A stretch of DNA of 41,003 bases from a virus (lineage: Duplodnaviria; Heunggongvirae; Uroviricota; Caudoviricetes), in the IMG/VR virus record IMGVR_UViG_3300045988_002471, positions 1 through 41,003 of that record. One strand, 5' to 3'. Under the pieces are notes generated by a model. It saw nothing but the letters and a program-made list of their open reading frames with translations. It made no database searches and had not been told where the DNA came from. This document shows, piece after piece, positions 6,621 through 32,058 of the stretch. A program made the position numbers and the translations under genes. The number at the start of each line of letters is the position of its first letter. Within the stretch, counting starts at the first letter, position 1.

Positions 6621-6648
6621 AAGGCCCCGTTTGGGGCCTTAGTTTTAT
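6621..6648 (+). terminator. Rho-independent terminator (AAGGCCCC-gttt-GGGGCCTT + T-run) ending the plus-strand early operon; convergent with tailspike 3' end
   Basis: Perfect 8-bp GC stem then AGTTTTATTT. Confidence 0.7.
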
Positions 6649-13035: not shown

Positions 13036-13532
13036 TGCATAGGGTCCCAAATTCGTGGAAACGTTGATTGTGCGGTTCCGTAGGCTTTAAGGAAACACCC
13101 CAGCCCATCACCATAGCAGCCGTACAAATCGGGCAGATTGTTAATCAGGCACTGGTTCTCAAGGTCCTGGAACGGTGATTTCTCGGCGGTTGCCGTGAAG
13201 GTGATTGTCCAGTTAATCCCGTCTTCGGTGGACTCGGCGATAGTGGACGTAATGGTTACCTGATAATCTTCGATGCCCATGCCGAAGTCGTGCGCCATCC
13301 AGAAACTTGACGCACCACCGTCTACTTTTTCGAGGAACGACAGAAACGCCTGCCGTCCCAGTGCCGATGTAATCAGGGTTACGCTAACAGGGAACACGTC
13401 GTAATACGTGTCACGGCCCTGACGCACCCCGCCACCGGCTAAATCTACACTCCAGACGTTGTTACGTCTGGTCATTGAGTAGCCTTTCGATACAATTGGC
13501 TTAAGGCTACGTGGGAAATATAAGTCGCTCAT
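13032..13532 (-). CDS. Minor tail protein (distal tail, downstream of tape measure)
   Basis: 166 aa; start overlaps tape-measure stop. Confidence 0.45.
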   Translation of the reverse strand: MSDLYFPRSLKPIVSKGYSMTRRNNVWSVDLAGGGVRQGRDTYYDVFPVSVTLITSALGRQAFLSFLEKVDGGASSFWMAHDFGMGIEDYQVTITSTIAESTEDGINWTITFTATAEKSPFQDLENQCLINNLPDLYGCYGDGLGCFLKAYGTAQSTFPRIWDPMQ

Positions 13533-15805
13533 TATTTAAACCCCGGCGCATTTCTTGTGGCTTTGCGGGCCTTGCTAATCTTACTGTTGCTGTTCTGCAA
13601 AGATGCAGCAACTTGCTCTTCTATGATGATACGCAGACGGCCTTCATCATCTTGCTCAGTAGATACGTTGCCAATTTGAGAACTCGTGTTGTTTACGATA
13701 GTAACATTAGACGGGCCGGAAGAAGACCCGTTTTGCCCCATAATTTCTTTCATCTGCTGCGCGGTGCGAACACGCGATGCACCCGCGGGCATGATAACTT
13801 CTGGTTTACCGCGTTCAGCGATAGTAGAAGCCTGCCCGGCGGATAACTGCCCACCCTGTTCACGCGCAGACCTGATAGCGGAAACCTGCGCCATACCCGC
13901 CCCAACGGCAGCGGCGGCCGCTACAGGCGCTAAGAACGGGCCGACTACAGGGATAGCCGCCGTTGACTTATACGCCTCAATAGCCGCGGTGTACGTGGCG
14001 ATGGTGGCCTGTACGATAGCGAATGCCTTGTACGCACCAGAAGCCTCCCCCAACGCAGACCCGATGTTTGAGGCCATGTTACCAAAGGCGGTTGCCGTTG
14101 CGTCGGCGCGCTTCGTAGCATACTGCTCGTTGATGGCGTTAAGCGCGGCCTGGTACTGTTTCTCATTAATAAGCCCCTGCTCACGGTACTTATCCGCTAC
14201 CGCCAGTTTCTGCTGTTCCTGGATGTCGAGAAGCTCAAGCTCAGTAGCGTTCTGACCCATAATCTGAGCCATGAAGTCGTCACCTTTCTGCTGCTTTTCC
14301 TGGGCTTCTTTCTGGCGTTTATCCAGTTCATCTTGCCGTTTTTGCCCGGCTTCGAGGACGATAGCTGTTTTAGCCTGTTCGTATTCTTTCAGCGACAGCG
14401 CGCCCTGGCTGTAGAACTCTTTTGCCTTAGCCAGTTTCTGCTGTTCCTGCGCGTCGATAGCCTTTAACTCATCGTTGTTCTGGCGAGCCAAAGTGTCGAG
14501 GTAATCCTGCGCCTGATTCCGCAATTGTTCTGCTTTCTTGGCGGCGGCTTTTGCTGCTTTATCGTCGGTGTTTCCTGCCCCGCCAGTTCCGCCCTTTTTA
14601 TTAACAAGACTGGCTAAGTCAATTTCTTGCTTCTTGCGCTCGTCGTACTGCTTGCGCTGTTCCTCAATTTCTTTCTTACGCTGCTTAGACCTGTTGGTAA
14701 TGGCCTGTGATTCTGCCTCAGCGCGTTTTATGCTAGCGGCGTACGCGGCGTCGGCCTCTGCGGTCAGGTTTTTAAATGTTAGCGCCGCCGTTTTGCTCGG
14801 GTCAAACACGTCGGCAAGGGTCTGCCCTAACGCTACAGCGTAATCGTCGATGCGCTGGAACCACGCAATAACCTCGTGAAATGTCTGCTGGATGTCCGGC
14901 AACCACTCACGGATGGCATCCGGTATAGTCCCCAGCGAGTCAGACATATCAACGGATTTGTCATCGGTATCGAATGCCAGGTCATTCAAGGCGTCGGAAA
15001 TAAACTTGAATGACTCATTGAACAGCGCCACCCAATCCTGGAGCGTGGCGGCTATCTCATTAGACGCGATGGCGTCGGTAAGCGCCGTGATAGCGTCTTC
15101 CGCTGTGGCCGCTTGCTCACCTACGGCGCCGCCAAAACCAGACCGCGCCACCGCAAGAACAAGACCGTCGAAGGAGTCGGCGAGGCTCGATAACTGGCCG
15201 TCTAGCGTCTTAGAGCGCGTCTCCATCGCCCCGGCAAAATCGGTGTTGCCGATATTCAGGAGGTATTTCTGAATCTCTTCGGAGTTCTTCTTAACCGTGG
15301 TCGTTACGCCGCGGAACGTGAACGAAACTGTATCTGCCTGTTGCGACGACTTGATGCCGAACTCTTTTAAGCGCTCAAATTCAAATGTACTGGCGTCGGC
15401 AACTGCCTCAATCATCTGATTAAGGTCTTTACCCATAGCCGCCGCGGTGTTGCCGTAGGAGATTAATGCCTCTTTGCTGGGGTTCAGACCGAGCGCAACG
15501 AGCTTGGTAAACCCCTCTACCGCCTGATTGAGACCGTACGGGGTCTCTTTTGCGAACTGTTGCAGGACGCTGAAAGCCTTAGCCGCGTTCTCGGCGCTCC
15601 CGGTCATCGTGATGAGGCTGGAGTTCAGCTTATCGAAGTTTCGCTGGGAATCCACCAGCGCGCTGAACACCTGCTTAGCGGTTTCCAGACTGACAACGGC
15701 GGCGGCGGCGGCCCCCGCCGCCTTGGTAAGCCCGTTCAGTTGTGATGTGGTTTTATCGACGCCGGTCGATGATACTCGTACTATCAAGCTAGCGGTATCA
15801 GCCAT
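13532..15805 (-). CDS. Tail tape measure protein
   Basis: About 757 aa, Ala/Gln-rich coiled-coil composition; follows chaperone pair; start set to ATG 15805 after RBS GAAGG (track start is TTG). Confidence 0.8.
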   Translation of the reverse strand: MADTASLIVRVSSTGVDKTTSQLNGLTKAAGAAAAAVVSLETAKQVFSALVDSQRNFDKLNSSLITMTGSAENAAKAFSVLQQFAKETPYGLNQAVEGFTKLVALGLNPSKEALISYGNTAAAMGKDLNQMIEAVADASTFEFERLKEFGIKSSQQADTVSFTFRGVTTTVKKNSEEIQKYLLNIGNTDFAGAMETRSKTLDGQLSSLADSFDGLVLAVARSGFGGAVGEQAATAEDAITALTDAIASNEIAATLQDWVALFNESFKFISDALNDLAFDTDDKSVDMSDSLGTIPDAIREWLPDIQQTFHEVIAWFQRIDDYAVALGQTLADVFDPSKTAALTFKNLTAEADAAYAASIKRAEAESQAITNRSKQRKKEIEEQRKQYDERKKQEIDLASLVNKKGGTGGAGNTDDKAAKAAAKKAEQLRNQAQDYLDTLARQNNDELKAIDAQEQQKLAKAKEFYSQGALSLKEYEQAKTAIVLEAGQKRQDELDKRQKEAQEKQQKGDDFMAQIMGQNATELELLDIQEQQKLAVADKYREQGLINEKQYQAALNAINEQYATKRADATATAFGNMASNIGSALGEASGAYKAFAIVQATIATYTAAIEAYKSTAAIPVVGPFLAPVAAAAAVGAGMAQVSAIRSAREQGGQLSAGQASTIAERGKPEVIMPAGASRVRTAQQMKEIMGQNGSSSGPSNVTIVNNTSSQIGNVSTEQDDEGRLRIIIEEQVAASLQNSNSKISKARKATRNAPGFK

Positions 15806-16130
15806 GATTTCTACCTTCAAAGATTGCTTCTAAGCCCATGATAATGTCTATCTCGAACAGGCTAAGCTGTTTTTGCGTAACATCGAGATAGGCTTTCAGG
15901 TCTTGCCACGTAACAGATTCTCTTGCAAACAATACTACAGCGTCCTCGCGCACGTGTCGCGTAAACTTAATGTCGCAATACGTCTCAAAGGTGGATATAA
16001 AAAGGGGCGGGCATTCTGGCCCGCCCCGTCGCGCTGCACGTTTTTTCTTATCGATTACACCCATCGCGATAAGCGCCTGTTCGTGTCCGTCGGCGATAGA
16101 ATCAAACTCTCTGATTTTATGCTTATCCAC
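15798..16130 (-). CDS. Tail assembly chaperone T-like frame, probably expressed as a G-T fusion by -1 frameshift
   Basis: Frame is open from 16181 with no ATG; -1 relative to the upstream gene; GGAAAAG at 16166..16172. Confidence 0.45.
   Translation of the reverse strand: MDKHKIREFDSIADGHEQALIAMGVIDKKKRAARRGGPECPPLFISTFETYCDIKFTRHVREDAVVLFARESVTWQDLKAYLDVTQKQLSLFEIDIIMGLEAIFEGRNHG
16004..16035 (-). terminator. Intragenic terminator-like hairpin (GGGGCGGGC-N6-GCCCGCCCC then TTTTTATAT on minus strand) inside the T-like frame
   Basis: Perfect 9-bp GC stem at 16004..16027 with a U-run on the coding strand. Confidence 0.45.
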
Positions 16131-16162
16131 AAACTCGTAGGTGGCGAACCTGTACAGCGCGT

Positions 16163-16579
16163 CTACTTTTCCTGTAATACTTTACGCTCGGCGTTATGGA
16201 ACGCCGCCACCTGTGTGCCTAATGCCTTGAACTGGTCCAGCAATTTGTTAAATGCTTCTTTAGAGAAAGGCTCATCAAAGCTCCAGCCGTTTACGACTTC
16301 TGCCGCGAGTTGCCGGTTGAGGTCTTCCGCCAGTTCGTTAATAGCCAGGTTATATTCAGTATAGTCGCCGGATTCTTTGGCGGCTTTTTCCAGTTCTTCG
16401 AAACGCGCCAACCCGCGACGGTACGCAATAATGAAAGCACGCCCCGCTTTAACGGCGACATCCGCATCGGGACTTACAACGTTAAGCCATTCACCGGAGT
16501 CTTCGCCGTTTGGCAGGAGAATCGGCATCTTCTTGCCCGCCAGTGCTTTCTCTTCGAAATAAAAATCAGAAAGTTTCAT
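16163..16579 (-). CDS. Tail assembly chaperone (lambda G-like)
   Basis: 138 aa, acidic; directly upstream of T-like frame and tape measure. Confidence 0.55.
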   Translation of the reverse strand: MKLSDFYFEEKALAGKKMPILLPNGEDSGEWLNVVSPDADVAVKAGRAFIIAYRRGLARFEELEKAAKESGDYTEYNLAINELAEDLNRQLAAEVVNGWSFDEPFSKEAFNKLLDQFKALGTQVAAFHNAERKVLQEK

Positions 16580-16687
16580 TCTTTAATCCTTTGGTTAAGA
16601 GGTTACAGGTTAACGATAAATGCGCCAGACGGGAACCACCCGCTTTTCGTGTGCGACACTAGGCGCAAACTTATTCTATCACATTAC

Positions 16688-16716
16688 TTGCACACCCCAA
16701 TATAATAGGGTACTAT
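16688..16716 (+). promoter_or_regulatory. Promoter TTGCAC-N17-TACTAT with operator-like palindrome (16703..16720) driving the plus-strand island
   Basis: -35 at 16688..16693, -10 at 16711..16716; the ~38-bp block recurs at 34662..34700 and 35663..35700. Confidence 0.55.
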
Positions 16717-16746
16717 TCACTTACACCAACAATGAAGGGGTTTAAA

Positions 16747-16938
16747 ATGTCCAGTTTACCAGTTTCCTTAATTCTGTTTGCACTGCTCGCTTATTTCGCG
16801 CCTTTCCTGGTTGCGTACTTCCGTAACCATAAAGCGAAGTTAGCGATATTCATGGCTAATCTGTTTCTTGGTTGGGTTCTGCTGCCGTGGGTATTTATTT
16901 TAATCTGGGCTTGCAACTCGAATGTCAAAGAGAAGTGA
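16747..16938 (+). CDS. Small two-TM membrane protein, superinfection-immunity (Imm)-like
   Basis: MSSLPVSLILFALLAYFAPFLVAYF...NLFLGWVLLPWVFILIWACN; start at ATG 16747 after RBS AAGGGG; Imm assignment is from memory of the family motif. Confidence 0.45.
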   Translation: MSSLPVSLILFALLAYFAPFLVAYFRNHKAKLAIFMANLFLGWVLLPWVFILIWACNSNVKEK

Positions 16939-16976
16939 GCTAGTATAGGACAAATCCTAAACACGAGGAAATAGGC

Positions 16977-18107
16977 ATGGCCCAGAAGAAAATAACCGAC
17001 GAACAGTTACAGGAAGAATTGAACGCTGGGATGAAGAATATCGACATTGCTCGTAAATACGGCATCTCAGACCGCGTAATTCGTATCCGTAAAGCGAAGC
17101 TGGCTAAGAAAGGCGTAGGTCACGGGCGCGACGTTAGTCACCTTGTGCCGGACGGCTACAAGATTAAAGGAACGTCGTCACTGGTGGACGAGTTCGGCAA
17201 CACTAAGTTGCAATGGGTTAAAACCGACACTGACGCCGAACGTCAGGTTGAGTTGATGAAGGCCGTAATCGAGGGCATGAAGTCGGAGATTACCCCCGTT
17301 GCTCCTGTTAAAGCCGTTCGCGCCAAACGAGACGACAAGCTACTCAACCTTTACACTGTGTCTGATTTCCATCTCGGTATGCTGGCCTGGGCTGACGAGA
17401 GCGGCGACGACTGGGACATGAAGATTGCGGAAGACCTGTTCTCCCGCTGGTTCGACGCAGCGTTCCAGAAAGCACCGGATGCAGGAACAGGAGTTATTAA
17501 TCTGCTGGGCGACCTTGCGCATTTTGATAGTCTGGACGCCGTTACACCTGCCAGTGGTCATGTTCTTGACGCTGACACCCGCTATCAGAAACTTGTACGC
17601 TACATGATTCGTATGGTCCGCCGTGTCATTGATATGGCTCTCGTTAAACATAAAAATGTTCGCTTGCTTATCGTGCAAGGTAACCACGACGAAAGCGGAA
17701 TGATTTGGTTGGCTGAGATGTTCAGTACGCTATACGACAACGAGCCGCGTGTGTTCGTCGATACGTCGCCGGATGTTTACAAGATGGTGCAACACGGCAA
17801 AACTACGCTGTTCTTTCACCACGGCCATAAAGCACGATTCGATGCTATCGAACCAGTTATGATCGCCAAGTTCCGCAAAGCGTTCGGCGAGAGTGTTTAC
17901 AGCTACGCCCATATAGGACACCTGCACCATCAGAAGATTGTAGAAAGCCGTAACATGATTGTTGAACAACACCGCACCCTGGCGGCTAAAGACGCCTACG
18001 CCTCGCGCGGCGGATGGATGTCGGGCCGCAGTGCAAACGTAATTACTTATAGTGCCGAATATGGCGAGGTCGCACGTTTAACTATTTCACCGGAGATGCT
18101 TGGATGA
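16977..18107 (+). CDS. Calcineurin-like metallophosphoesterase with N-terminal HTH-like domain
   Basis: Phosphoesterase motifs DFHLG, GDLAHFD, GNHDE, HHGH, GHLHH; N-terminal about 60 aa resemble a small HTH. Confidence 0.7.
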   Translation: MAQKKITDEQLQEELNAGMKNIDIARKYGISDRVIRIRKAKLAKKGVGHGRDVSHLVPDGYKIKGTSSLVDEFGNTKLQWVKTDTDAERQVELMKAVIEGMKSEITPVAPVKAVRAKRDDKLLNLYTVSDFHLGMLAWADESGDDWDMKIAEDLFSRWFDAAFQKAPDAGTGVINLLGDLAHFDSLDAVTPASGHVLDADTRYQKLVRYMIRMVRRVIDMALVKHKNVRLLIVQGNHDESGMIWLAEMFSTLYDNEPRVFVDTSPDVYKMVQHGKTTLFFHHGHKARFDAIEPVMIAKFRKAFGESVYSYAHIGHLHHQKIVESRNMIVEQHRTLAAKDAYASRGGWMSGRSANVITYSAEYGEVARLTISPEMLG

Positions 18108-18589
18108 AAGATATTGTGATTTTCGATTTAGACGGGACATTGGCAGATGGTACTCATCGTTTACACCTGCTGCCGAAAGATAACTACGGCGAAACCTGGG
18201 CGTGGAAACCATTTAACATGGCGTGCAAAGACGATGCACCCATTAAAGATAACATCGAACTGTGTAACGCCATTAATCGTCGCTATGCCGTTATTATCTT
18301 AACAGGCCGTAGTGATGACGCGGAAAAAGAAACCAGAATGTGGTTGCAGCGCCACCGCGTCGAATTTTATCAGTTAATCATGCGCAGCAAACACGACAAC
18401 AGAAAAGACATCGTAATTAAAGAAGAGGTGTTGCGTGCTATTGGGCCGGAGAGAATCTTGTGTGCATTCGACGACTCTCCAGCGGTAATAAAGCATTTCC
18501 GCGAACTCGGCATAACCACTCACGCAGTTACTGAATACGACTGTAACGGGAACTCTACACACTTAAAACCACATGGGAGTGATAAATAA
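18104..18589 (+). CDS. HAD-family phosphatase, T4 polynucleotide kinase 3'-phosphatase-domain-like
   Basis: VIFDLDGTLA (DxDGT), IILTGRS, K, AFDDSP motifs; resemblance to T4 Pnk phosphatase domain recalled from memory. Confidence 0.65.
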   Translation: MKDIVIFDLDGTLADGTHRLHLLPKDNYGETWAWKPFNMACKDDAPIKDNIELCNAINRRYAVIILTGRSDDAEKETRMWLQRHRVEFYQLIMRSKHDNRKDIVIKEEVLRAIGPERILCAFDDSPAVIKHFRELGITTHAVTEYDCNGNSTHLKPHGSDK

Positions 18590-19143
18590 TGGCTAAGGTA
18601 ATTATTCTTAATGGTCCTGCGGGCTGCGGGAAAGACACACTTGCTAGGGCGCTGGTAGAAATGGGCTTTGCGAAGGGTGTCGCCAGTTTCAAGAATCCGA
18701 TGTTCAATATTGCTATGGCTGCGTTAGGCCAGGATGCTTACCGCGAGTTTCTCGACGGCTACGACGACCGGGCGCGGAAAGAAAAGCCAGAGGGTTTCCT
18801 TAACGGGTTGTCTCGGCGTCAGTTCATGATTGCCATTTCCGAGCAATTCATTAAACCGGTATTCGGTGATGATTATTTCGGCAAGTATCTTGCCGGAAAC
18901 TTGCCCGACGGCAACGAAGTTTTTGTAGTGTCCGACGGTGGATTCGCCAGCGAAGTAGCCCCTATCGTTGCCGCGGGGCATGATGTGAGAATCGTCCGCT
19001 TGCACAGAGACGGCCATACGTTTGAAGGGGACAGCCGCGGTTACCTGTACGATATTGATGGTGTAAAAGATTACGACACCTACATCATACCGGGTGACGT
19101 TAAATCGAACGTTATAGACATTGCTTTAAAATTAGGTTTGTAA
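18589..19143 (+). CDS. P-loop kinase (dNMP-kinase-like or polynucleotide-kinase-like)
   Basis: Walker A GPAGCGKDT; about 184 aa; start overlaps upstream stop. Confidence 0.6.
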   Translation: MAKVIILNGPAGCGKDTLARALVEMGFAKGVASFKNPMFNIAMAALGQDAYREFLDGYDDRARKEKPEGFLNGLSRRQFMIAISEQFIKPVFGDDYFGKYLAGNLPDGNEVFVVSDGGFASEVAPIVAAGHDVRIVRLHRDGHTFEGDSRGYLYDIDGVKDYDTYIIPGDVKSNVIDIALKLGL

Positions 19144-19180
19144 GAAAAAAAAAAAGGCCCCGAAAGGGGCCTTAGTTTTA
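19144..19180. terminator. Bidirectional rho-independent terminator (A-run, AAGGCCCC-gaaa-GGGGCCTT, T-run)
   Basis: Perfect stem flanked by A12 and T-run between convergent genes. Confidence 0.75.
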
Positions 19181-20350
19181 TGCGTAGGTGATACGTTGAA
19201 TTACGATAGACGACTGGTACTGATTGCCGGTAGCCTGGCCTTCAATGGACTGAGTGATTGACTCAGGCCCACCAATCTCAGGTGTAACCGCCGTAAGCTC
19301 TGCACGTTTCAAACTGAAAGACATAGCCCCGTTTACCCCTGCCAGAATAGAGTTAATCTCTACCTGCTGCTCGTTGATAAACTTCTGAATCATCGCCATG
19401 TCGTACAGCTTGCCAGAGATAGAGAATGTGTTAGCTGCGCGTCCACGTTCGACGAACGCCACGCTACTGTTACCGAGTTCGAACTGCGCGGAAGCTCCGT
19501 TGTCGTTGGTGATGGTGAGAGTATCGCAACGCAACGGCGTGGAGCCATCGAACACCGACACATCTACCGACGAGAACGGCTCATCGGTGAACGTAACCTG
19601 AGAGAAATCAGAGCCAGACGGCGACGCGGTAAGAATCTCCTGACTCAGGCCGATGAACGGGAAGCTGCCGGTGACCATGGCGTTAACCGCCTGCTCTACG
19701 GTAAAGCCAGAGATTTCCACACCTTTGGTCAGCATGTACGCGTCCGGGGTACCACACTGGCCCTTGAACCACGTCAGGATGGAGAACGTCTTACACGCGT
19801 TACCGGTTTCCAGCTTGTCGCCAGTTTTTGCGTCAGTGGTTACTGTCTCTGCTGTCAGCGTGTGCTGAATACCTGCGCCCGTAACTACCAGAGCGGAAAC
19901 CGCGGTCACGATAAACGGTTTTGCGTTGTCGCCGGTTAAGTCGGTGAACGCAATCAGGTCGCCAACTTCAACGCCGTCGGTAATAAAGCTGCCATCGGCA
20001 CGGGTGAACGTCTTGCCTGCGGGTGCAACGGTAATCGATAACCCTGACAGAGAAACCCCGGACTGCCACGTAGAGCCTAAAGCGCCCGCCAGCCAGTCGT
20101 CCTGGCTTTTCGAGCTAAGCTCAATTGCGTACTCCCCGCTAACCTGTTTGTTGCCGGTGCGGATGGAGGTAGTTTCACGGCTGCCGTCCAGTTCGTTGGA
20201 TGTCAGTGTGTCGCGGGTAATGGCAGGAACGCCACCCGTGTTACGCAACGGCGACCATACCGGGTTAGTCGGTGTTACACCCGGGGTCGCTTCCGCCACA
20301 TAGAATTGCGCCGTATTCGCGCCCTTAAAAGGAGTTGTAGCCATATTCAC
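19178..20350 (-). CDS. Major tail protein (putative)
   Basis: 390 aa; directly downstream of tail-completion genes; ATGA coupling. Confidence 0.55.
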   Translation of the reverse strand: MNMATTPFKGANTAQFYVAEATPGVTPTNPVWSPLRNTGGVPAITRDTLTSNELDGSRETTSIRTGNKQVSGEYAIELSSKSQDDWLAGALGSTWQSGVSLSGLSITVAPAGKTFTRADGSFITDGVEVGDLIAFTDLTGDNAKPFIVTAVSALVVTGAGIQHTLTAETVTTDAKTGDKLETGNACKTFSILTWFKGQCGTPDAYMLTKGVEISGFTVEQAVNAMVTGSFPFIGLSQEILTASPSGSDFSQVTFTDEPFSSVDVSVFDGSTPLRCDTLTITNDNGASAQFELGNSSVAFVERGRAANTFSISGKLYDMAMIQKFINEQQVEINSILAGVNGAMSFSLKRAELTAVTPEIGGPESITQSIEGQATGNQYQSSIVIQRITYA

Positions 20351-22828: not shown

Positions 22829-22858
22829 AAAAGGGGCCGTAGCCCCTTTGTTTTTACC
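22829..22858 (-). terminator. Terminator-like hairpin after the capsid gene (AGGGGC-tacg-GCCCCT + T-run on minus strand)
   Basis: GC stem plus TTTTTAC just 3' of the capsid stop. Confidence 0.5.
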
Positions 22859-26973: not shown

Positions 26974-27007
26974 TTGATTAAATTCTACATTCAAATGTAG
27001 AATTTAA
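26974..27007 (+). promoter_or_regulatory. Promoter TTGATT-N18-TAGAAT overlapped by a 13-bp-arm inverted repeat (26978..27007)
   Basis: TTAAATTCTACAT-tcaa-ATGTAGAATTTAA spans the spacer and -10 upstream of the KilA-N gene. Confidence 0.55.
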
Positions 27008-27692: not shown

Positions 27693-27720
27693 AAGGCCCC
27701 TAGCGGGGCCTTTCTATTTA
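27693..27720 (+). terminator. Rho-independent terminator (AAGGCCCC-tagc-GGGGCCTT + T-rich) between KilA-N gene and portal 3' end
   Basis: Perfect 8-bp stem then TCTATTTA. Confidence 0.6.
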
Positions 27721-29199
27721 CTCCTGCTGTTGCGCCGACTGCGGAATCTCGCCAGTTACCTGAGTAACAGCGCCTAACGGCACAGGTGCATCCTCAATAG
27801 CCGTTGTAATCTCCTCGTCAGTCCAGTCAGTTACCCCAGCCTTACGCAACGCGGCGTAGTAAGCAGTTGCCGGTAGTAAACCGGCATTAATGTCTGCCAT
27901 CCACTGCGCACGGTCCTGAGCGGTCATTGGTTGCAGGAAGAACTCCATGTTCAGTTTGAACTCAATTTCAGTGCTGTCGCTAATCCCAAGCATACCCGCG
28001 ACCCAGCGCAACGCATCGGTATACGCCATGCTTACGTTACGTGCGATTGTTGCCATAACGGACGTATCAGCGCCGCGTTGCAGACGCGCCGATTCAGCAG
28101 TGATTTGCTGCGTCGGGGTAATAAGCTGTGCACCAATCTGGATAGCCTGATTCTCTTTATCCAGCATGTTCTGTTTGGCGAGGTTGTTCTCTCCTGCCTG
28201 AACCAGAAACGCATTGCCGCCGTAACCGATGTTATGGCCTGAACGCGACCCCATGCGCACGCCGTGAGGGTTAGCTTCTTTCCACTGCGCCATGCTCATA
28301 TTCTCACCGGGGGCGATGAACAGAGTAGGCTGGCCTACGACGAAGCTGGACTCCTCATTGTCCGCGCTGTTGCGGAAGTGCCCGATATTAAGTTCAGCCA
28401 ACGGCAGCAAAGGTGCATCGTCAGGGGTTGGGTCGTTATTTCCCGCGCCGATGAACGTGAACGGAATCACCCCGACCGGAATATTACCGAGTTTCGGGAA
28501 TATTTCGATATAGCCACCTTCCATCAGTGCACCTTTCTGGTTAAAGCGGTACAGACGCTGGCGATACTGGCCTTCGAAAATATCAAGGACGCGGTATTGC
28601 TCGCCGTAGTTGGGGCTGAACTCATCCGCGCCATCGGTGTACTCGTATTCCTCACGCAATACAACCATAACCACACGATTAACAGACCCGACGCGCTGGA
28701 GACGCCAGTTGATGATGTTCTCTGCGGTGTAGAAAGCGATTGTTGGGTTTAGTAAACCCTCGTTTTGCTCTGCCATGGTAGCTACTTCTACCGCGGGGGC
28801 GTCAACCAGCAAACCACCGCGACCAACAGCATCAATCTCATACAGAGTATCCTGTGCGTGCTGCCACAGGCCAACGCCCGACCCGTCACAGTTAGTGGTC
28901 AGGTATTCCATCTGAGACGGAATAATCATCTCGGGGTCTTTGCGCATTACGCTGCCGACCATGCCTGAAAGCGTTCGCTTGGTGAAGTTGTAGCAAATTG
29001 CCCCCGCTTCGTATTCAGCCTGACGCTGGCGACCGTAAACCGGGTCCGGCTCGTTCTTACTGACGTCACGTAGATACGATGTCAGGTCGCCAGAAAGCGC
29101 ATGTCGCACCTTCTGCCACTTAGGGAAATACTCTTCGTACTGGCGGTGGCGGGTTTTAACGTTCTGCCCTTGCCCTGCGTTAATGTTTGCGGAAACCAT
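27718..29199 (-). CDS. Portal protein
   Basis: 493 aa directly downstream of terminase large subunit. Confidence 0.75.
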   Translation of the reverse strand: MVSANINAGQGQNVKTRHRQYEEYFPKWQKVRHALSGDLTSYLRDVSKNEPDPVYGRQRQAEYEAGAICYNFTKRTLSGMVGSVMRKDPEMIIPSQMEYLTTNCDGSGVGLWQHAQDTLYEIDAVGRGGLLVDAPAVEVATMAEQNEGLLNPTIAFYTAENIINWRLQRVGSVNRVVMVVLREEYEYTDGADEFSPNYGEQYRVLDIFEGQYRQRLYRFNQKGALMEGGYIEIFPKLGNIPVGVIPFTFIGAGNNDPTPDDAPLLPLAELNIGHFRNSADNEESSFVVGQPTLFIAPGENMSMAQWKEANPHGVRMGSRSGHNIGYGGNAFLVQAGENNLAKQNMLDKENQAIQIGAQLITPTQQITAESARLQRGADTSVMATIARNVSMAYTDALRWVAGMLGISDSTEIEFKLNMEFFLQPMTAQDRAQWMADINAGLLPATAYYAALRKAGVTDWTDEEITTAIEDAPVPLGAVTQVTGEIPQSAQQQE

Positions 29200-29210
29200 T
29201 TGTTGTCCTC

Positions 29211-30461
29211 TTAAAGTGCGAAAGTCACAGGGATGTTGATTACTGGTTTAACCACCGGCATCTCGTAAACTACAGGATAGCCGAGAGCATCCGCCATATG
29301 GTCAATGATGCCGTCTTTAGCTGGCTCTCCGTTATCGTCGTATGCCTGCTGCTCCAGCGTCTTCGCTATCTCAGGGCATAAGTGGTCGTTAATCCACAGT
29401 TTACCTTTTTCCAGTGCGGTATTCACGGCTAAAACACGGTCTTTAACCGGAGGGTTGGCGGATTTAGCGCGAACATCGAAACCTGCCTGCTGGAGTAACG
29501 CAATATCTGAGATTGACGCCGAGTTGGTCTTGCGGTTCTTGCCGCTGGCGTCCGGGTAAACGACTATGCGGTGGCCCTGCGACTTCCACTTCTCAGTAAT
29601 TACGCGCACGGTATCCGGTGTATCGAACAGGCCTTTCAGTTCTGCTACCGCGTGCCAGCCGTCTTTACGTTGCACATACACGGCGCTTGCGTTCTTCGTA
29701 ACGTTGAAGTCCTGCCCGATGTACAACGTGTCACCCGGTTGAATTACCTCTTTGCTGCGGTGCTTACGGCGGTCATATGCGTAATACACGCTGCCGGAGG
29801 TAAGGTTGACGAACTCACCATTCAGATACGCGTTAATCAACTGCGCCGGATAAGTCTCGGTCAGCGAACTAATGTAGTCAGGCGGCAGGAATCGCGCGTT
29901 CTCGTGTGTAGAAGCCTGCACCATCGAGTAACTCGGCGTCGGGTTCTCTTTGAACTTGGCGTAGACGAACTTGAACCCTTCCGGTGTCGTGGTGACAGAG
30001 ATGTGGTTAATTACACCAGGAATAACAAGACGCATACGGGCGACAATTTTGTTCCACGCCAGCTCAGCTTTCTCACGGCTCAATACATCAAGCTCATCCA
30101 CGACCGCAGCGGCGATTTTGAAGCCGACTATCGAGCCTGGGTTATCCATAGAACGGCAGATAACTGTACCGAGCACCGTCTTACCGCGAGTAACCACGAC
30201 TTCTTTGTCGCCAGATTTAACCAGCACATCGAGGCCGAGCAGGTTAGCGGCTTCCTCAAATGTCGGGTAGAAGATGTCACGGATAGCCGGGTATGTCGGG
30301 CCGAAGTAACCCAGGCGCGTACCTGGATGCTTGAGCATAAACGTAAGCAGGTCAAGGCAGCCAACAAATGTCTTGCCACTGCCGAAGCCGCCGACGTAGG
30401 CCTTGTATTTATTATCGCAATTCAGGAACAGCGCCTGAGGGGCGGATAGCTGAATACTCAT
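29211..30461 (-). CDS. Terminase large subunit
   Basis: Walker A GGFGSGKT near N-terminus; 416 aa; ATGA coupling to upstream small subunit. Confidence 0.85.
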   Translation of the reverse strand: MSIQLSAPQALFLNCDNKYKAYVGGFGSGKTFVGCLDLLTFMLKHPGTRLGYFGPTYPAIRDIFYPTFEEAANLLGLDVLVKSGDKEVVVTRGKTVLGTVICRSMDNPGSIVGFKIAAAVVDELDVLSREKAELAWNKIVARMRLVIPGVINHISVTTTPEGFKFVYAKFKENPTPSYSMVQASTHENARFLPPDYISSLTETYPAQLINAYLNGEFVNLTSGSVYYAYDRRKHRSKEVIQPGDTLYIGQDFNVTKNASAVYVQRKDGWHAVAELKGLFDTPDTVRVITEKWKSQGHRIVVYPDASGKNRKTNSASISDIALLQQAGFDVRAKSANPPVKDRVLAVNTALEKGKLWINDHLCPEIAKTLEQQAYDDNGEPAKDGIIDHMADALGYPVVYEMPVVKPVINIPVTFAL

Positions 30462-31003
30462 TCCTCTACCTCGCCCATGTTTGTGGTAACTATTTTGCCT
30501 ACGGGCTCCGCAACACTGAAAATAATCTCAGTCGGTGCCGTTTCTTCGGTGGATTCGACCGGTTTCTCTTTGCTAAGGCCTAGCTTCGCGGCAGCAAATG
30601 TAGCCGAGATGCCCGCGGCCCCGGTCTCGGTGAAGTATGCCTCTTCCAGTGCCTGTGCAGTTTCATAGGCTTCTGCAAATGCGGGAATCTCGCGCAGCCA
30701 CAGCTTAATAATCGGGATAGTGACGCCGATGTGCAGGGCGAAGCGGGCCAGTGATGGGGGTTTATCCTGAATCAGCGGGCGCTCTTCACCCTTGGACGTA
30801 GGCACAAGTTCCCATGACGTGCGGTCGAAGAACTCGATTAGCGCGTCGCAATAATCCGGGTCCCACAGCGCGGCGGAATTACGGGATGATTGATAAAGGC
30901 TCTGTTTACCGCGCGGTCGTTTACGTCGGCGGTTTGCGCTAACAGCTTCTTCATGTGCAGCTTGCACCACCTCTGGCGATGGCTGCTTGAGTTTCAGCTT
31001 CAT
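30458..31003 (-). CDS. Terminase small subunit (putative)
   Basis: Immediately upstream of and overlapping the large subunit; start set to ATG 31003 after RBS AAGGGGA. Confidence 0.5.
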   Translation of the reverse strand: MKLKLKQPSPEVVQAAHEEAVSANRRRKRPRGKQSLYQSSRNSAALWDPDYCDALIEFFDRTSWELVPTSKGEERPLIQDKPPSLARFALHIGVTIPIIKLWLREIPAFAEAYETAQALEEAYFTETGAAGISATFAAAKLGLSKEKPVESTEETAPTEIIFSVAEPVGKIVTTNMGEVEE

Positions 31004-31095
31004 ATAATCCCCTTGCATATGCGTCTGACCATCAGAGCGCACCAGACGCGCCCTACGCGTCTAAAGGGATTATATAAGGGGATTGGGCGGGATGT

Positions 31096-31121
31096 ACAGA
31101 AAAGCCCTCGGTAGAGGGCTT
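31096..31121 (-). terminator. Terminator-like hairpin (AAGCCCTC-ggta-GAGGGCTT) ending the small-ORF operon
   Basis: 8-bp stem plus T-rich tail on the minus strand. Confidence 0.45.
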
Positions 31122-31124
31122 GTA

Positions 31125-31226
31125 TCAGTTGTATAGGCCGTGGCGTGGTGCTCTTTTACCGTCGCCGCCGTAATGGTCGTTAGCTACGGGAATGGCCCAG
31201 GCGTTAGGGATGATTAGTAGTCTCAT
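31125..31226 (-). CDS. Tiny ORF (33 aa)
   Basis: Own translation; ATGA coupling to upstream ORF. Confidence 0.2.
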   Translation of the reverse strand: MRLLIIPNAWAIPVANDHYGGDGKRAPRHGLYN

Positions 31227-31381
31227 TTGAAGAAACCATCCTCGACAAGCTGACGGTATAGTTTAGCTGCGTAACGCTCTGCCTGGCCTTTGCGCCGAAA
31301 TATTTTCCCATTAACTGAATACTTATTTAACTCTGGCTCGTACCAAACTTGGTTGTCGATGAACTCCAGAATACTAATCAT
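31223..31381 (-). CDS. Small ORF (52 aa)
   Basis: Own translation MISILEFIDNQVWYEPELNKYSVNGKIF...; ATGA coupling. Confidence 0.3.
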   Translation of the reverse strand: MISILEFIDNQVWYEPELNKYSVNGKIFRRKGQAERYAAKLYRQLVEDGFFK

Positions 31382-31614
31382 TCCCCACTCTCCTCTTTAG
31401 CAATACGTTGCTCAGTTTTAGTGATACCCCGGCGCGTGAATAACACCGGGCTTGTCTTAACGTGCGTCATCAGACGGTTGTTATAAATTACATGGCGCTC
31501 GCAGTTAACGTCTTTGCTGTACTTGGCAATCGTCATTTCGTTGATGCCGGTTTGTCGGCATGTCTCAGCCATCGTGCCGTATTCTTTAATCAGGTTCGGA
31601 ATGCTGGTAATCAT
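31378..31614 (-). CDS. Small protein with possible HTH (78 aa)
   Basis: Track ORF trimmed to MITSIPNLIKEYGTMAETCRQTGINEMTIAKYSKD... (ATGA coupling). Confidence 0.4.
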   Translation of the reverse strand: MITSIPNLIKEYGTMAETCRQTGINEMTIAKYSKDVNCERHVIYNNRLMTHVKTSPVLFTRRGITKTEQRIAKEESGE

Positions 31615-31781
31615 CCTAAGAAATTCCTCGTTGTCCACATCGCATTCGGATATTTGTTATCGCGGTCCCGCACTACGGCAACCATGTTACCGCGTTGCAC
31701 CAGGCAAAAGTGCCGTTGTTGCTCGCCGTTGTAACGACGCCAGATTGCCTCTTCGATTGCTGCGTTAATGTCACTGAACAC
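31611..31781 (-). CDS. Small ORF (about 56 aa, GTG start)
   Basis: Track ORF has TTG start; GTG with RBS chosen instead. Confidence 0.3.
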   Translation of the reverse strand: MFSDINAAIEEAIWRRYNGEQQRHFCLVQRGNMVAVVRDRDNKYPNAMWTTRNFLG

Positions 31782-31866
31782 TGCCTCTACCCCACATAAA
31801 CCCAATCAACACGCCGATGAAATAACCGGCCGCCACAAGACCGATAACCACTTCAAGGCTCATACA

Positions 31867-32058
31867 TTACCCCACTATCTCATCACCGAGCCACGCCGTT
31901 TCTCGTATATCGTCGACCACACAAGCGGCGTGCTCACGGCTAATTGCAAAAATGTAGAAGCTGAACTTCTTCCCGTCGGCGTCGATGTGGTTAACCGAGT
32001 ATGGTTTCCACAGGACGCCATCGATAACTACGGGTTCAGGCGCTTTCATACCCATCAC
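31867..32058 (-). CDS. Small hypothetical protein (63 aa)
   Basis: Track ORF in the coupled small-ORF operon. Confidence 0.4.
   Translation of the reverse strand: MMGMKAPEPVVIDGVLWKPYSVNHIDADGKKFSFYIFAISREHAACVVDDIRETAWLGDEIVG

Follow-up and report, generated by a model that had tools for sequence, protein, structure and literature searches.

Tail assembly uses many copies of the chaperone G per copy of GT and per tape measure, and in lambda this ratio is ascribed to translation alone. A G-type chaperone is needed in excess over GT, as in lambda, and its role also requires G to stand above the tape measure (PMC5009743). The locus described here shares the lambda G/GT layout, in which a -1 frame, T, overlaps and follows G immediately ahead of the tape measure gene, with a lysine-codon slip near the stop of G; a scan of the lambda G-T region itself revealed no terminator-like hairpin beyond chance. 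It also resembles phage T1 (NC_005833), a siphovirus of E. coli in which a rho-independent terminator, itself a prediction, is annotated at 19508-19527 between the chaperone ORFs and the tape measure gene, that is, after a G-type chaperone; T1 also has terminators after the major head and major tail genes. In Listeria phage CKA15, termination sites were mapped after the tail-tube and chaperone genes (PMC12282133), and similar elements were predicted after the major tail gene in Cluster O mycobacteriophages (PMC4351075).

The window analysed here is the whole stretch of 41,003 nucleotides of viral DNA. The region around the hairpin that concerns us shares 93-98% identity with K1G-type Kagunavirus phages of E. 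coli (Guernseyvirinae) and, judged by its sequence, the window is a K1G-type Kagunavirus. Its structural genes are encoded on the minus strand from about 31000 to 6645, and the tail module contains the following features.

16163-16579, minus strand: gene for the tail assembly chaperone G, 138 aa (Pfam PF08748, PHROG 15027), annotated in K1G
16165-16163, minus strand: stop codon UAG of G
15798-16181, minus strand: open -1 frame, the T extension of GT (Pfam PF23812, Phage_TAC_18, E 1e-18; PHROG 15027 positions 137-259)
16163-16169, minus strand: shift site A_AAG followed by the stop UAG, AAAGUAR being nearly invariant across 66 related loci
13532-15805, minus strand: gene for the tape measure protein, ATG at 15805, the next gene past the hairpin

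The A_AAG of the shift site is a lysine codon adjoining the stop codon of G, and the -1 frame T opens only 5 codons ahead of that stop. At its other end, the T-frame stop UGA at 15800-15798 overlaps the start of the tape measure gene (AUGGCUGA). PHROG 15027 covers both the G part and the T part, and the G/GT homologues of RefSeq K1G are annotated as a joined CDS, i.e. as a frameshift product. The locus thus displays each feature of a G/GT frameshift cassette, namely a chaperone ORF, an overlapping -1 ORF and a slippery site, placed between the tail-tube and tape measure genes. All distal tail genes, down to 6645, follow the tape measure gene on the same strand.

Intrinsic terminators consist of a stem of about 5-14 bp, rich in G+C and closed by a short loop, and a U-rich tract directly 3' of it on the transcribed strand. 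Both features were found within the T frame of the window.

16004-16027, minus strand: terminator-type stem-loop GGGGCGGGC CAGAAU GCCCGCCCC, with 9 G-C pairs and a 6-nt loop
15995-16003, minus strand: U-tract UUUUUAUAU directly 3' of the stem, read in the T frame as CUU UUU AUA (L-F-I)

The arms of the stem lie at 16027-16019 (GGGGCGGGC) and 16012-16004 (GCCCGCCCC), on either side of the loop at 16018-16013. An initial annotation had described a perfect 9-bp GC hairpin with a U-run inside a T-like frame, about 200 nt before the tape measure start, and this was borne out: the inverted repeat is present, all nine pairs are G-C, UUUUUAUAU follows, and the hairpin lies in the -1 (T) frame 199 nt ahead of the tape measure ATG at 15805. 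The interval given at that time, 16004-16035, holds the stem-loop, but it includes 8 nt upstream of the stem and misses the U-run; with both corrected, the element spans 15995-16027. The hairpin is located 135 nt past the G stop UAG and about 200 nt ahead of the T stop, and it therefore lies after a stop codon in frame 0, yet inside the -1 frame that a minority of ribosomes reads. In the T frame, the stem-loop encodes the residues R-G-G-P-E-C-P-P, which the start of the U-tract extends to R-G-G-P-E-C-P-P-L-F.

The hairpin alone has a folding energy of -21 to -22.5 kcal/mol. When hairpins were counted that had a stem of 9 bp or more with 7 or more G-C pairs, a 3-8 nt loop and no fewer than 5 T among the 8 nt that follow, the window yielded one; 100 shuffles preserving dinucleotides gave 0.02 on average and never more than 1. 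It is the sole strong terminator-type hairpin of the window outside intergenic DNA, and it took second place among nine on a rough terminator 'd' score (after d'Aubenton Carafa et al. 1990) that serves only to rank hairpins within this window. An Rfam search of 15600-16800 matched the hairpin to no family, the single match being the leader element described below.

Several other roles for the hairpin were considered and rejected. As a terminator for the plus strand it would be poorly built, since 13 nt separate the stem from the T-run on that side, the upstream A-run lacks conservation, and the G-U pairs found in relatives become mismatches. As a stimulator of the G/GT frameshift it is 135 nt away from the shift site. 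It could also be imagined to stimulate frameshifting at the A-run AAGAAAAAAC, situated 13 nt upstream of the hairpin; this run was seen in no lineage outside the K1G clade, and after a -1 shift at the run about 20 codons are read before a stop. Hairpin-stimulated transcriptional slippage, of the type outlined in Penno et al. 2015, was set aside because the run is only U5, and one added U leads to a stop after 7 codons and one lost U to a stop after about 22.

Loci coding for relatives of G and the T domain were collected from IMG/VR and from GenBank phages, giving 66 aligned sequences that fall into 28 lineages at 95% identity. Among the 14 distinct hairpin-bearing sequences, 84% of cells were paired in the stem, compared with 38-65% in slid controls in which the partner was moved by 1-3 columns. 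Five of the nine stem pairs had changed on both sides (G-C to A-U; C-G to G-C or U-A), and the covariation score was reached by none of 500 shuffles. As this set was chosen for the hairpin and its members are related, the covariation constitutes support rather than proof; the unselected alignment of 66 sequences pointed in the same direction.

The protein sequence explains one part of the stem. The T protein carries a conserved motif, G-P-E-C-P, the codons of which (GGG CCN GAR UGC CCN) force the top four pairs, GGGC/GCCC. Beyond these, the stem is extended to 6-9 pairs by sequences that differ between lineages.

K1G clade: GGGGC...GCCCC
Lineage L061: AGAG...CUCU
Lineage L052: AAAG...CUUU
Klebsiella VLCpiS11a group: AAG...CUU
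Lineage L082: GGAG...CUCU, plus a different loop

The extensions fall in the least conserved stretch of the T protein, and pairing is kept through amino-acid replacement in the flanking codons (R-G...P-L, E-E...S-L, E-K...F-I and L-K...L-I). In the K1G clade, where the T protein is identical, the stem shows synonymous C-to-U changes that leave G-U pairs, and one phage of the clade carries a double change restoring a U-A pair; every synonymous stem change in this clade is pair-preserving. On the other strand these G-U pairs would read as C-A mismatches, which places the selection on the sense RNA. The hairpin is thus a structure selected at the level of the sense RNA. In the position of the U-tract, two K1G-type phages have UUUUCAUAU, with UUUUC in place of UUUUU.

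The length of the stem was also found to track the T-run that follows it. Lineages with at least six contiguous pairs (6-9) have 5-6 T in the next 8 nt, with the exception of L072, which has 4, and those with only the four motif-forced pairs (Jerseyvirus, Golestan-type and L074) have 0-1 T, L073 being the exception. The pairs GGGC/GCCC are present in every lineage that retains G-P-E-C-P, Jerseyvirus SE2 and Golestan-type Kagunavirus among them, and these two have neither a further stem nor a T-run; TTTTT is present in some stemless lineages. The conserved residues G-P-E-C-P and [LI]-F thus account for the top four pairs and for part of the T-run. Jerseyvirus, Golestan-type Kagunavirus and Cornellvirus-like relatives share the gene order and lack the element as a whole. 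The hairpin is weaker in several other lineages, and outside the K1G clade the rough terminator score is marginal or weak. In a neighbour-joining tree built without the hairpin columns, hairpin-bearing lineages were located on both deep branches, which implies an old element with several losses, or else repeated gain. The supplement on phage fBC-Eco01 lists 23 terminators, of which none is between G and the tape measure gene; this fits our data, as fBC-Eco01 falls in the group of Golestan, in whose T region the hairpin is missing.

The G/T region is mosaic within the genus Kagunavirus, in which Golestan-type (L064-L071 and L105) and K1G-type (the window and L037-L050) versions occur. The K1G-type T with the hairpin was present in only 43 of the 117 phage records that matched the 1-kb region, and the Golestan-type T clusters with Jerseyvirus in the tree.

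A second RNA structure, the long-range helix P1, was detected at the shift site.

16152-16161, minus strand: 5' arm of P1, CGCGCUGUAC, starting 4 nt after the shift site A_AAG_UAG
16030-16039, minus strand: 3' arm of P1, GUGCAGCGCG, ending 2 nt before the terminator hairpin

P1 has 10 bp and encloses about 112 nt. It is present in both the minimum-energy and the centroid folds of a 181-nt segment (z = -3.9), was found at the same place in many lineages by duplex search, and was predicted de novo by RNAalifold. Covariation was seen at three of its pairs (C-G to U-A at 7:6; U-A to A-U at 5:4; and U-A, U-G or C-G at the third pair). The synonymous positions of GCG CUG are almost fixed among the 66 sequences, and the one variable base, the first of the Leu codon (C/U), changes together with its pairing partner. 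P1 is fully kept in Jerseyvirus and in Golestan-type phages, whose hairpin has only 4 bp, and it is therefore an element separate from the terminator. The hairpin lies 1-4 nt 3' of the 3' arm of P1 in all lineages but one (up to 9 nt). Frameshift stimulators are recognised as a structure a few nucleotides 3' of a slippery site, with a conserved product in the shifted frame; P1 has this arrangement and the terminator hairpin does not. On this modelled fold, P1 is probably the -1 frameshift stimulator of G/GT.

A strong bidirectional terminator, with eleven consecutive T on the minus strand, lies at 19154-19173 after the tail-tube gene, and a block of plus-strand genes (16732-19143) is situated between it and G. 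With the upstream structural transcript stopped at 19154-19173 and the plus-strand block intervening, the G operon needs a promoter of its own, and candidate promoter elements were found within the 150 nt upstream of G, together with a structured leader.

16673-16700, minus strand: candidate sigma-70-like promoter, TTGGGG-N16-(TGa)TAGAAT, read from the sequence and missed by a consensus scan
16702-16719, minus strand: repeated phage motif TGAATAGTACCCTATTAT, with 6 copies in the window against 0.05 expected
16605-16669, minus strand: structured 5' leader of the G message, int-alpA-like (Rfam RF02996)

In alignments with relatives, the position of the -10 element of this promoter candidate is conserved. 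Downstream, a promoter scan from 16003 to 6645, from the hairpin to the last tail gene, gave none that stands out above chance.

The repeated motif TGAATAGTACCCTATTAT is listed as a 'phage promoter' by PHIRE in a related phage (PMC9825357 Table S2). Besides the copy at 16702-16719 on the minus strand, the motif (TGAATAGTAnCCTATTAT) occurs on the plus strand at 449, 34665, 35666, 39174 and 39218, always upstream of gene blocks, and contains the inverted repeat AATAG...CTATT. The paper on the related phage presents it as a promoter for a phage RNA polymerase (PMC9825357); no evidence of a phage RNA polymerase was seen here, and the motif is more likely a regulator site or a class of host-polymerase promoter.

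The leader scored 31.8 bits against the Rfam int-alpA family, below the gathering threshold of 35.8, with an E-value of 5.5e-5 in a 301-nt search. It folds as an outer helix, GCGCC/GGCGC, around two small hairpins, and begins a few nucleotides from the predicted transcription start. The leader recurs upstream of G, with compensating changes, in many Guernseyvirinae, including distant relatives, SE2 and Cornellvirus-like phages; the Klebsiella VLCpiS11a group lacks it, and its presence is uncorrelated with that of the terminator.

Near-identical intergenic terminator hairpins mark the boundaries of gene blocks at 6621-6640, 19154-19173, 22830-22849, 27693-27712 and 31102-31121, the one at 22830-22849 immediately following the capsid gene. 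Sequences of this family are AAGGCCCC-N4-GGGGCCUU, AAAGGGGC-N4-GCCCCUUU and AAGCCCUC-N4-GAGGGCUU, and several of the hairpins, among them those that follow the capsid, tail-tube and tailspike genes, look bidirectional. Two further inverted repeats were recorded in the window. The longest, a perfect 13-bp A+T-rich palindrome, TTAAATTCTACAT-TCAA-ATGTAGAATTTAA, at 26978-27007 in the divergent intergenic region 26892 / 27035, may be an operator or an origin-like site. The other, an 8-bp all-G-C repeat, GGCGGCGG...CCGCCGCC, at 15701-15722 within the tape measure gene, encodes an Ala/Gly run, has no T-run and is probably a by-product of coding.

Taken at the level of sequence, the hairpin and its U-tract are probably a leaky intrinsic (Rho-independent) terminator that gives rise to a short, G-only transcript. 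That the stem covaries, that its G-U pairs fix the sense RNA as the level of selection, and that its length varies together with the T-run are observations made here, as is its context in the operon; the hairpin moreover resembles the phage's own intergenic terminators. From these we infer termination itself, as the initial annotation had proposed, together with its leakiness and its effect on stoichiometry. According to this proposal, the tail operon would start at its own promoter just upstream of G, and most ribosomes would halt at the G stop, leaving the next 135 nt mostly untranslated. For the 0-frame ribosomes that make G, the hairpin would be an ordinary post-stop terminator. The G-C hairpin would form behind the RNA polymerase as it reaches the U-tract, and a short transcript, about 670 nt long for a start near 16666, would be released with G alone encoded in full length. 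Polymerases that read through would continue into the rest of T, the tape measure gene and the distal tail genes. Since the distal tail genes are all downstream and the stretch from 16003 to 6645 shows no promoter that stands out, a strong terminator at this site must leak or be overridden. With a short transcript and read-through combined, the G message is expected to exceed the tape measure message, and such an excess would fit a chaperone needed in many copies per tape measure. The suggestion that the hairpin attenuates the distal tail genes relative to 'the chaperones' was supported by the comparative data in its first part, but only G would be favoured, and not GT, because the T part lies mostly downstream of the hairpin. 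The unusual location may have a simple cause: the T stop overlaps the tape measure start and leaves no intergenic space, so that any terminator between G and the tape measure gene must sit inside T. It would there have been placed in the most variable segment of T, on the G-P-E-C-P codons that already provide GGGC/GCCC.

Covariation points to a structure and not to its function, and the hairpin could have been selected for another role in the RNA, such as protection of the 3' end of a processed G message from exonucleases, stacking on the outer end of P1 to tune the -1 frameshift, or slowing of ribosomes in T. Its consistent distance from the 3' arm of P1 (1-4 nt, up to 9 nt in one lineage) is in keeping with such a role, as is the retention of the stem in several lineages despite a poor terminator score. 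We nevertheless consider a role of this kind unlikely, as the association between long stems and T-runs would be left unexplained, the hairpin is 135 nt from the shift site, and P1 is intact in Jerseyvirus and Golestan-type phages with their 4-bp hairpin, so that the frameshift signal is independent of it. A selected role is itself denied if the hairpin merely results from coding for G-P-E-C-P-x-[LI]-F in a G+C-rich linker. GGGC/GCCC does stay wherever G-P-E-C-P is kept, even with no lower stem or T-run, as in Jerseyvirus, some of the U-run comes from the Phe codon UUU, and a few lineages without a stem still have TTTTT. However, the lower 3-5 pairs have been kept by covariation at the price of amino-acid replacements on both sides, in an otherwise unconserved segment, the synonymous changes in the K1G clade all preserve pairs, and the chance expectation is about 0.02 per window, which together make an origin as a mere by-product very improbable.

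The overlap of two reading frames also allows a terminator gated by ribosomes, one that terminates only if the trailing ribosome has stopped at G, whereas a ribosome shifted into T would cover the 5' arm and cause read-through, tying transcription of the tape measure gene to the synthesis of GT. The position of the hairpin, past the stop codon in frame 0 and within the ORF in frame -1, would suit such a mechanism. In E. coli, the efficiency of a terminator moved by one added base from a post-stop position into a translated frame fell to 40%, and in vitro termination in the translated frame was abolished (PMC4824070). The 3' arm of P1, however, lies 113 nt downstream, so P1 would not yet have formed when a ribosome follows close behind the polymerase, and shifting by the leading ribosome should therefore be rare. 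Nor was an alternative, antiterminator pairing seen: the hairpin stands alone in the 181-nt fold with the upstream sequence locked in P1, and neither this fold nor the RNAalifold prediction contained the competing helix that characterises leader-peptide attenuators. Gating by ribosomes, attractive as the idea is, thus appears very improbable, and we attach just as little probability to its extension, in which a frameshift-gated attenuator and P1 would form one RNA device, reaching from the shift site to the foot of the terminator, that sets the G : GT : tape measure ratio at both the transcriptional and the translational level.

We therefore return to the leaky terminator as the preferred reading. 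If a conserved terminator does separate the G stop from the rest of the operon, it would add a transcriptional layer to the control of the G ratio, and it would illustrate how a regulatory RNA signal can be written in a frame that few ribosomes read. For annotation, it would explain the 'intragenic' site flagged by terminator predictors in K1G-type therapeutic phages. Helix P1 and the structured leader provide testable handles on the tuning of this widespread frameshift, and public RNA-seq of the K1G-type phage vB_Eco_K1B4 is available (PRJCA028359 / PRJNA939978; genome OQ696342), although the publication on this phage lists no expression or coverage values by gene. Its spacing matches that of the window, with G at 28905-29321 and the tape measure gene at 29679-31952, so that the hairpin is expected at about 29457-29480 and the end of the U-run at about 29489.

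When set against the known systems, the locus differs from lambda in that its slip site A_AAG adjoins the stop codon and is followed 4 nt downstream by a covarying long-range helix. The leaky terminators after capsid and tail-tube genes, represented in the window at 22830-22849 and 19154-19173, have the same anatomy and presumably the same logic as the T-frame hairpin; they are, however, intergenic, whereas the T-frame hairpin overlaps a frame used by a minority of ribosomes. The E. coli test constructs of Li et al. 2016 demonstrated that terminator efficiency depends on ribosomes translating across the site (PMC4824070), a situation that the two frames create here; those constructs were engineered and used one frame, and a natural, frameshift-dependent case is not described there (PMC4824070). 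The Kagunavirus paper mentions only 'a few' predicted terminators within genes (PMC9825357), and in our literature searches no earlier account of a terminator placed within a chaperone frameshift frame came up. The closest arrangement is that of T1, in which the hairpin is placed in a 40-nt intergenic gap right after the stop of the T-like ORF, with both G and GT upstream of it. In the present phage there is no such gap, the hairpin is inside T, and only G is predicted to be complete on the short transcript. Thus, while the layout, a terminator between the chaperone ORFs and the tape measure gene, is known from T1, its placement inside the frameshift frame is new.
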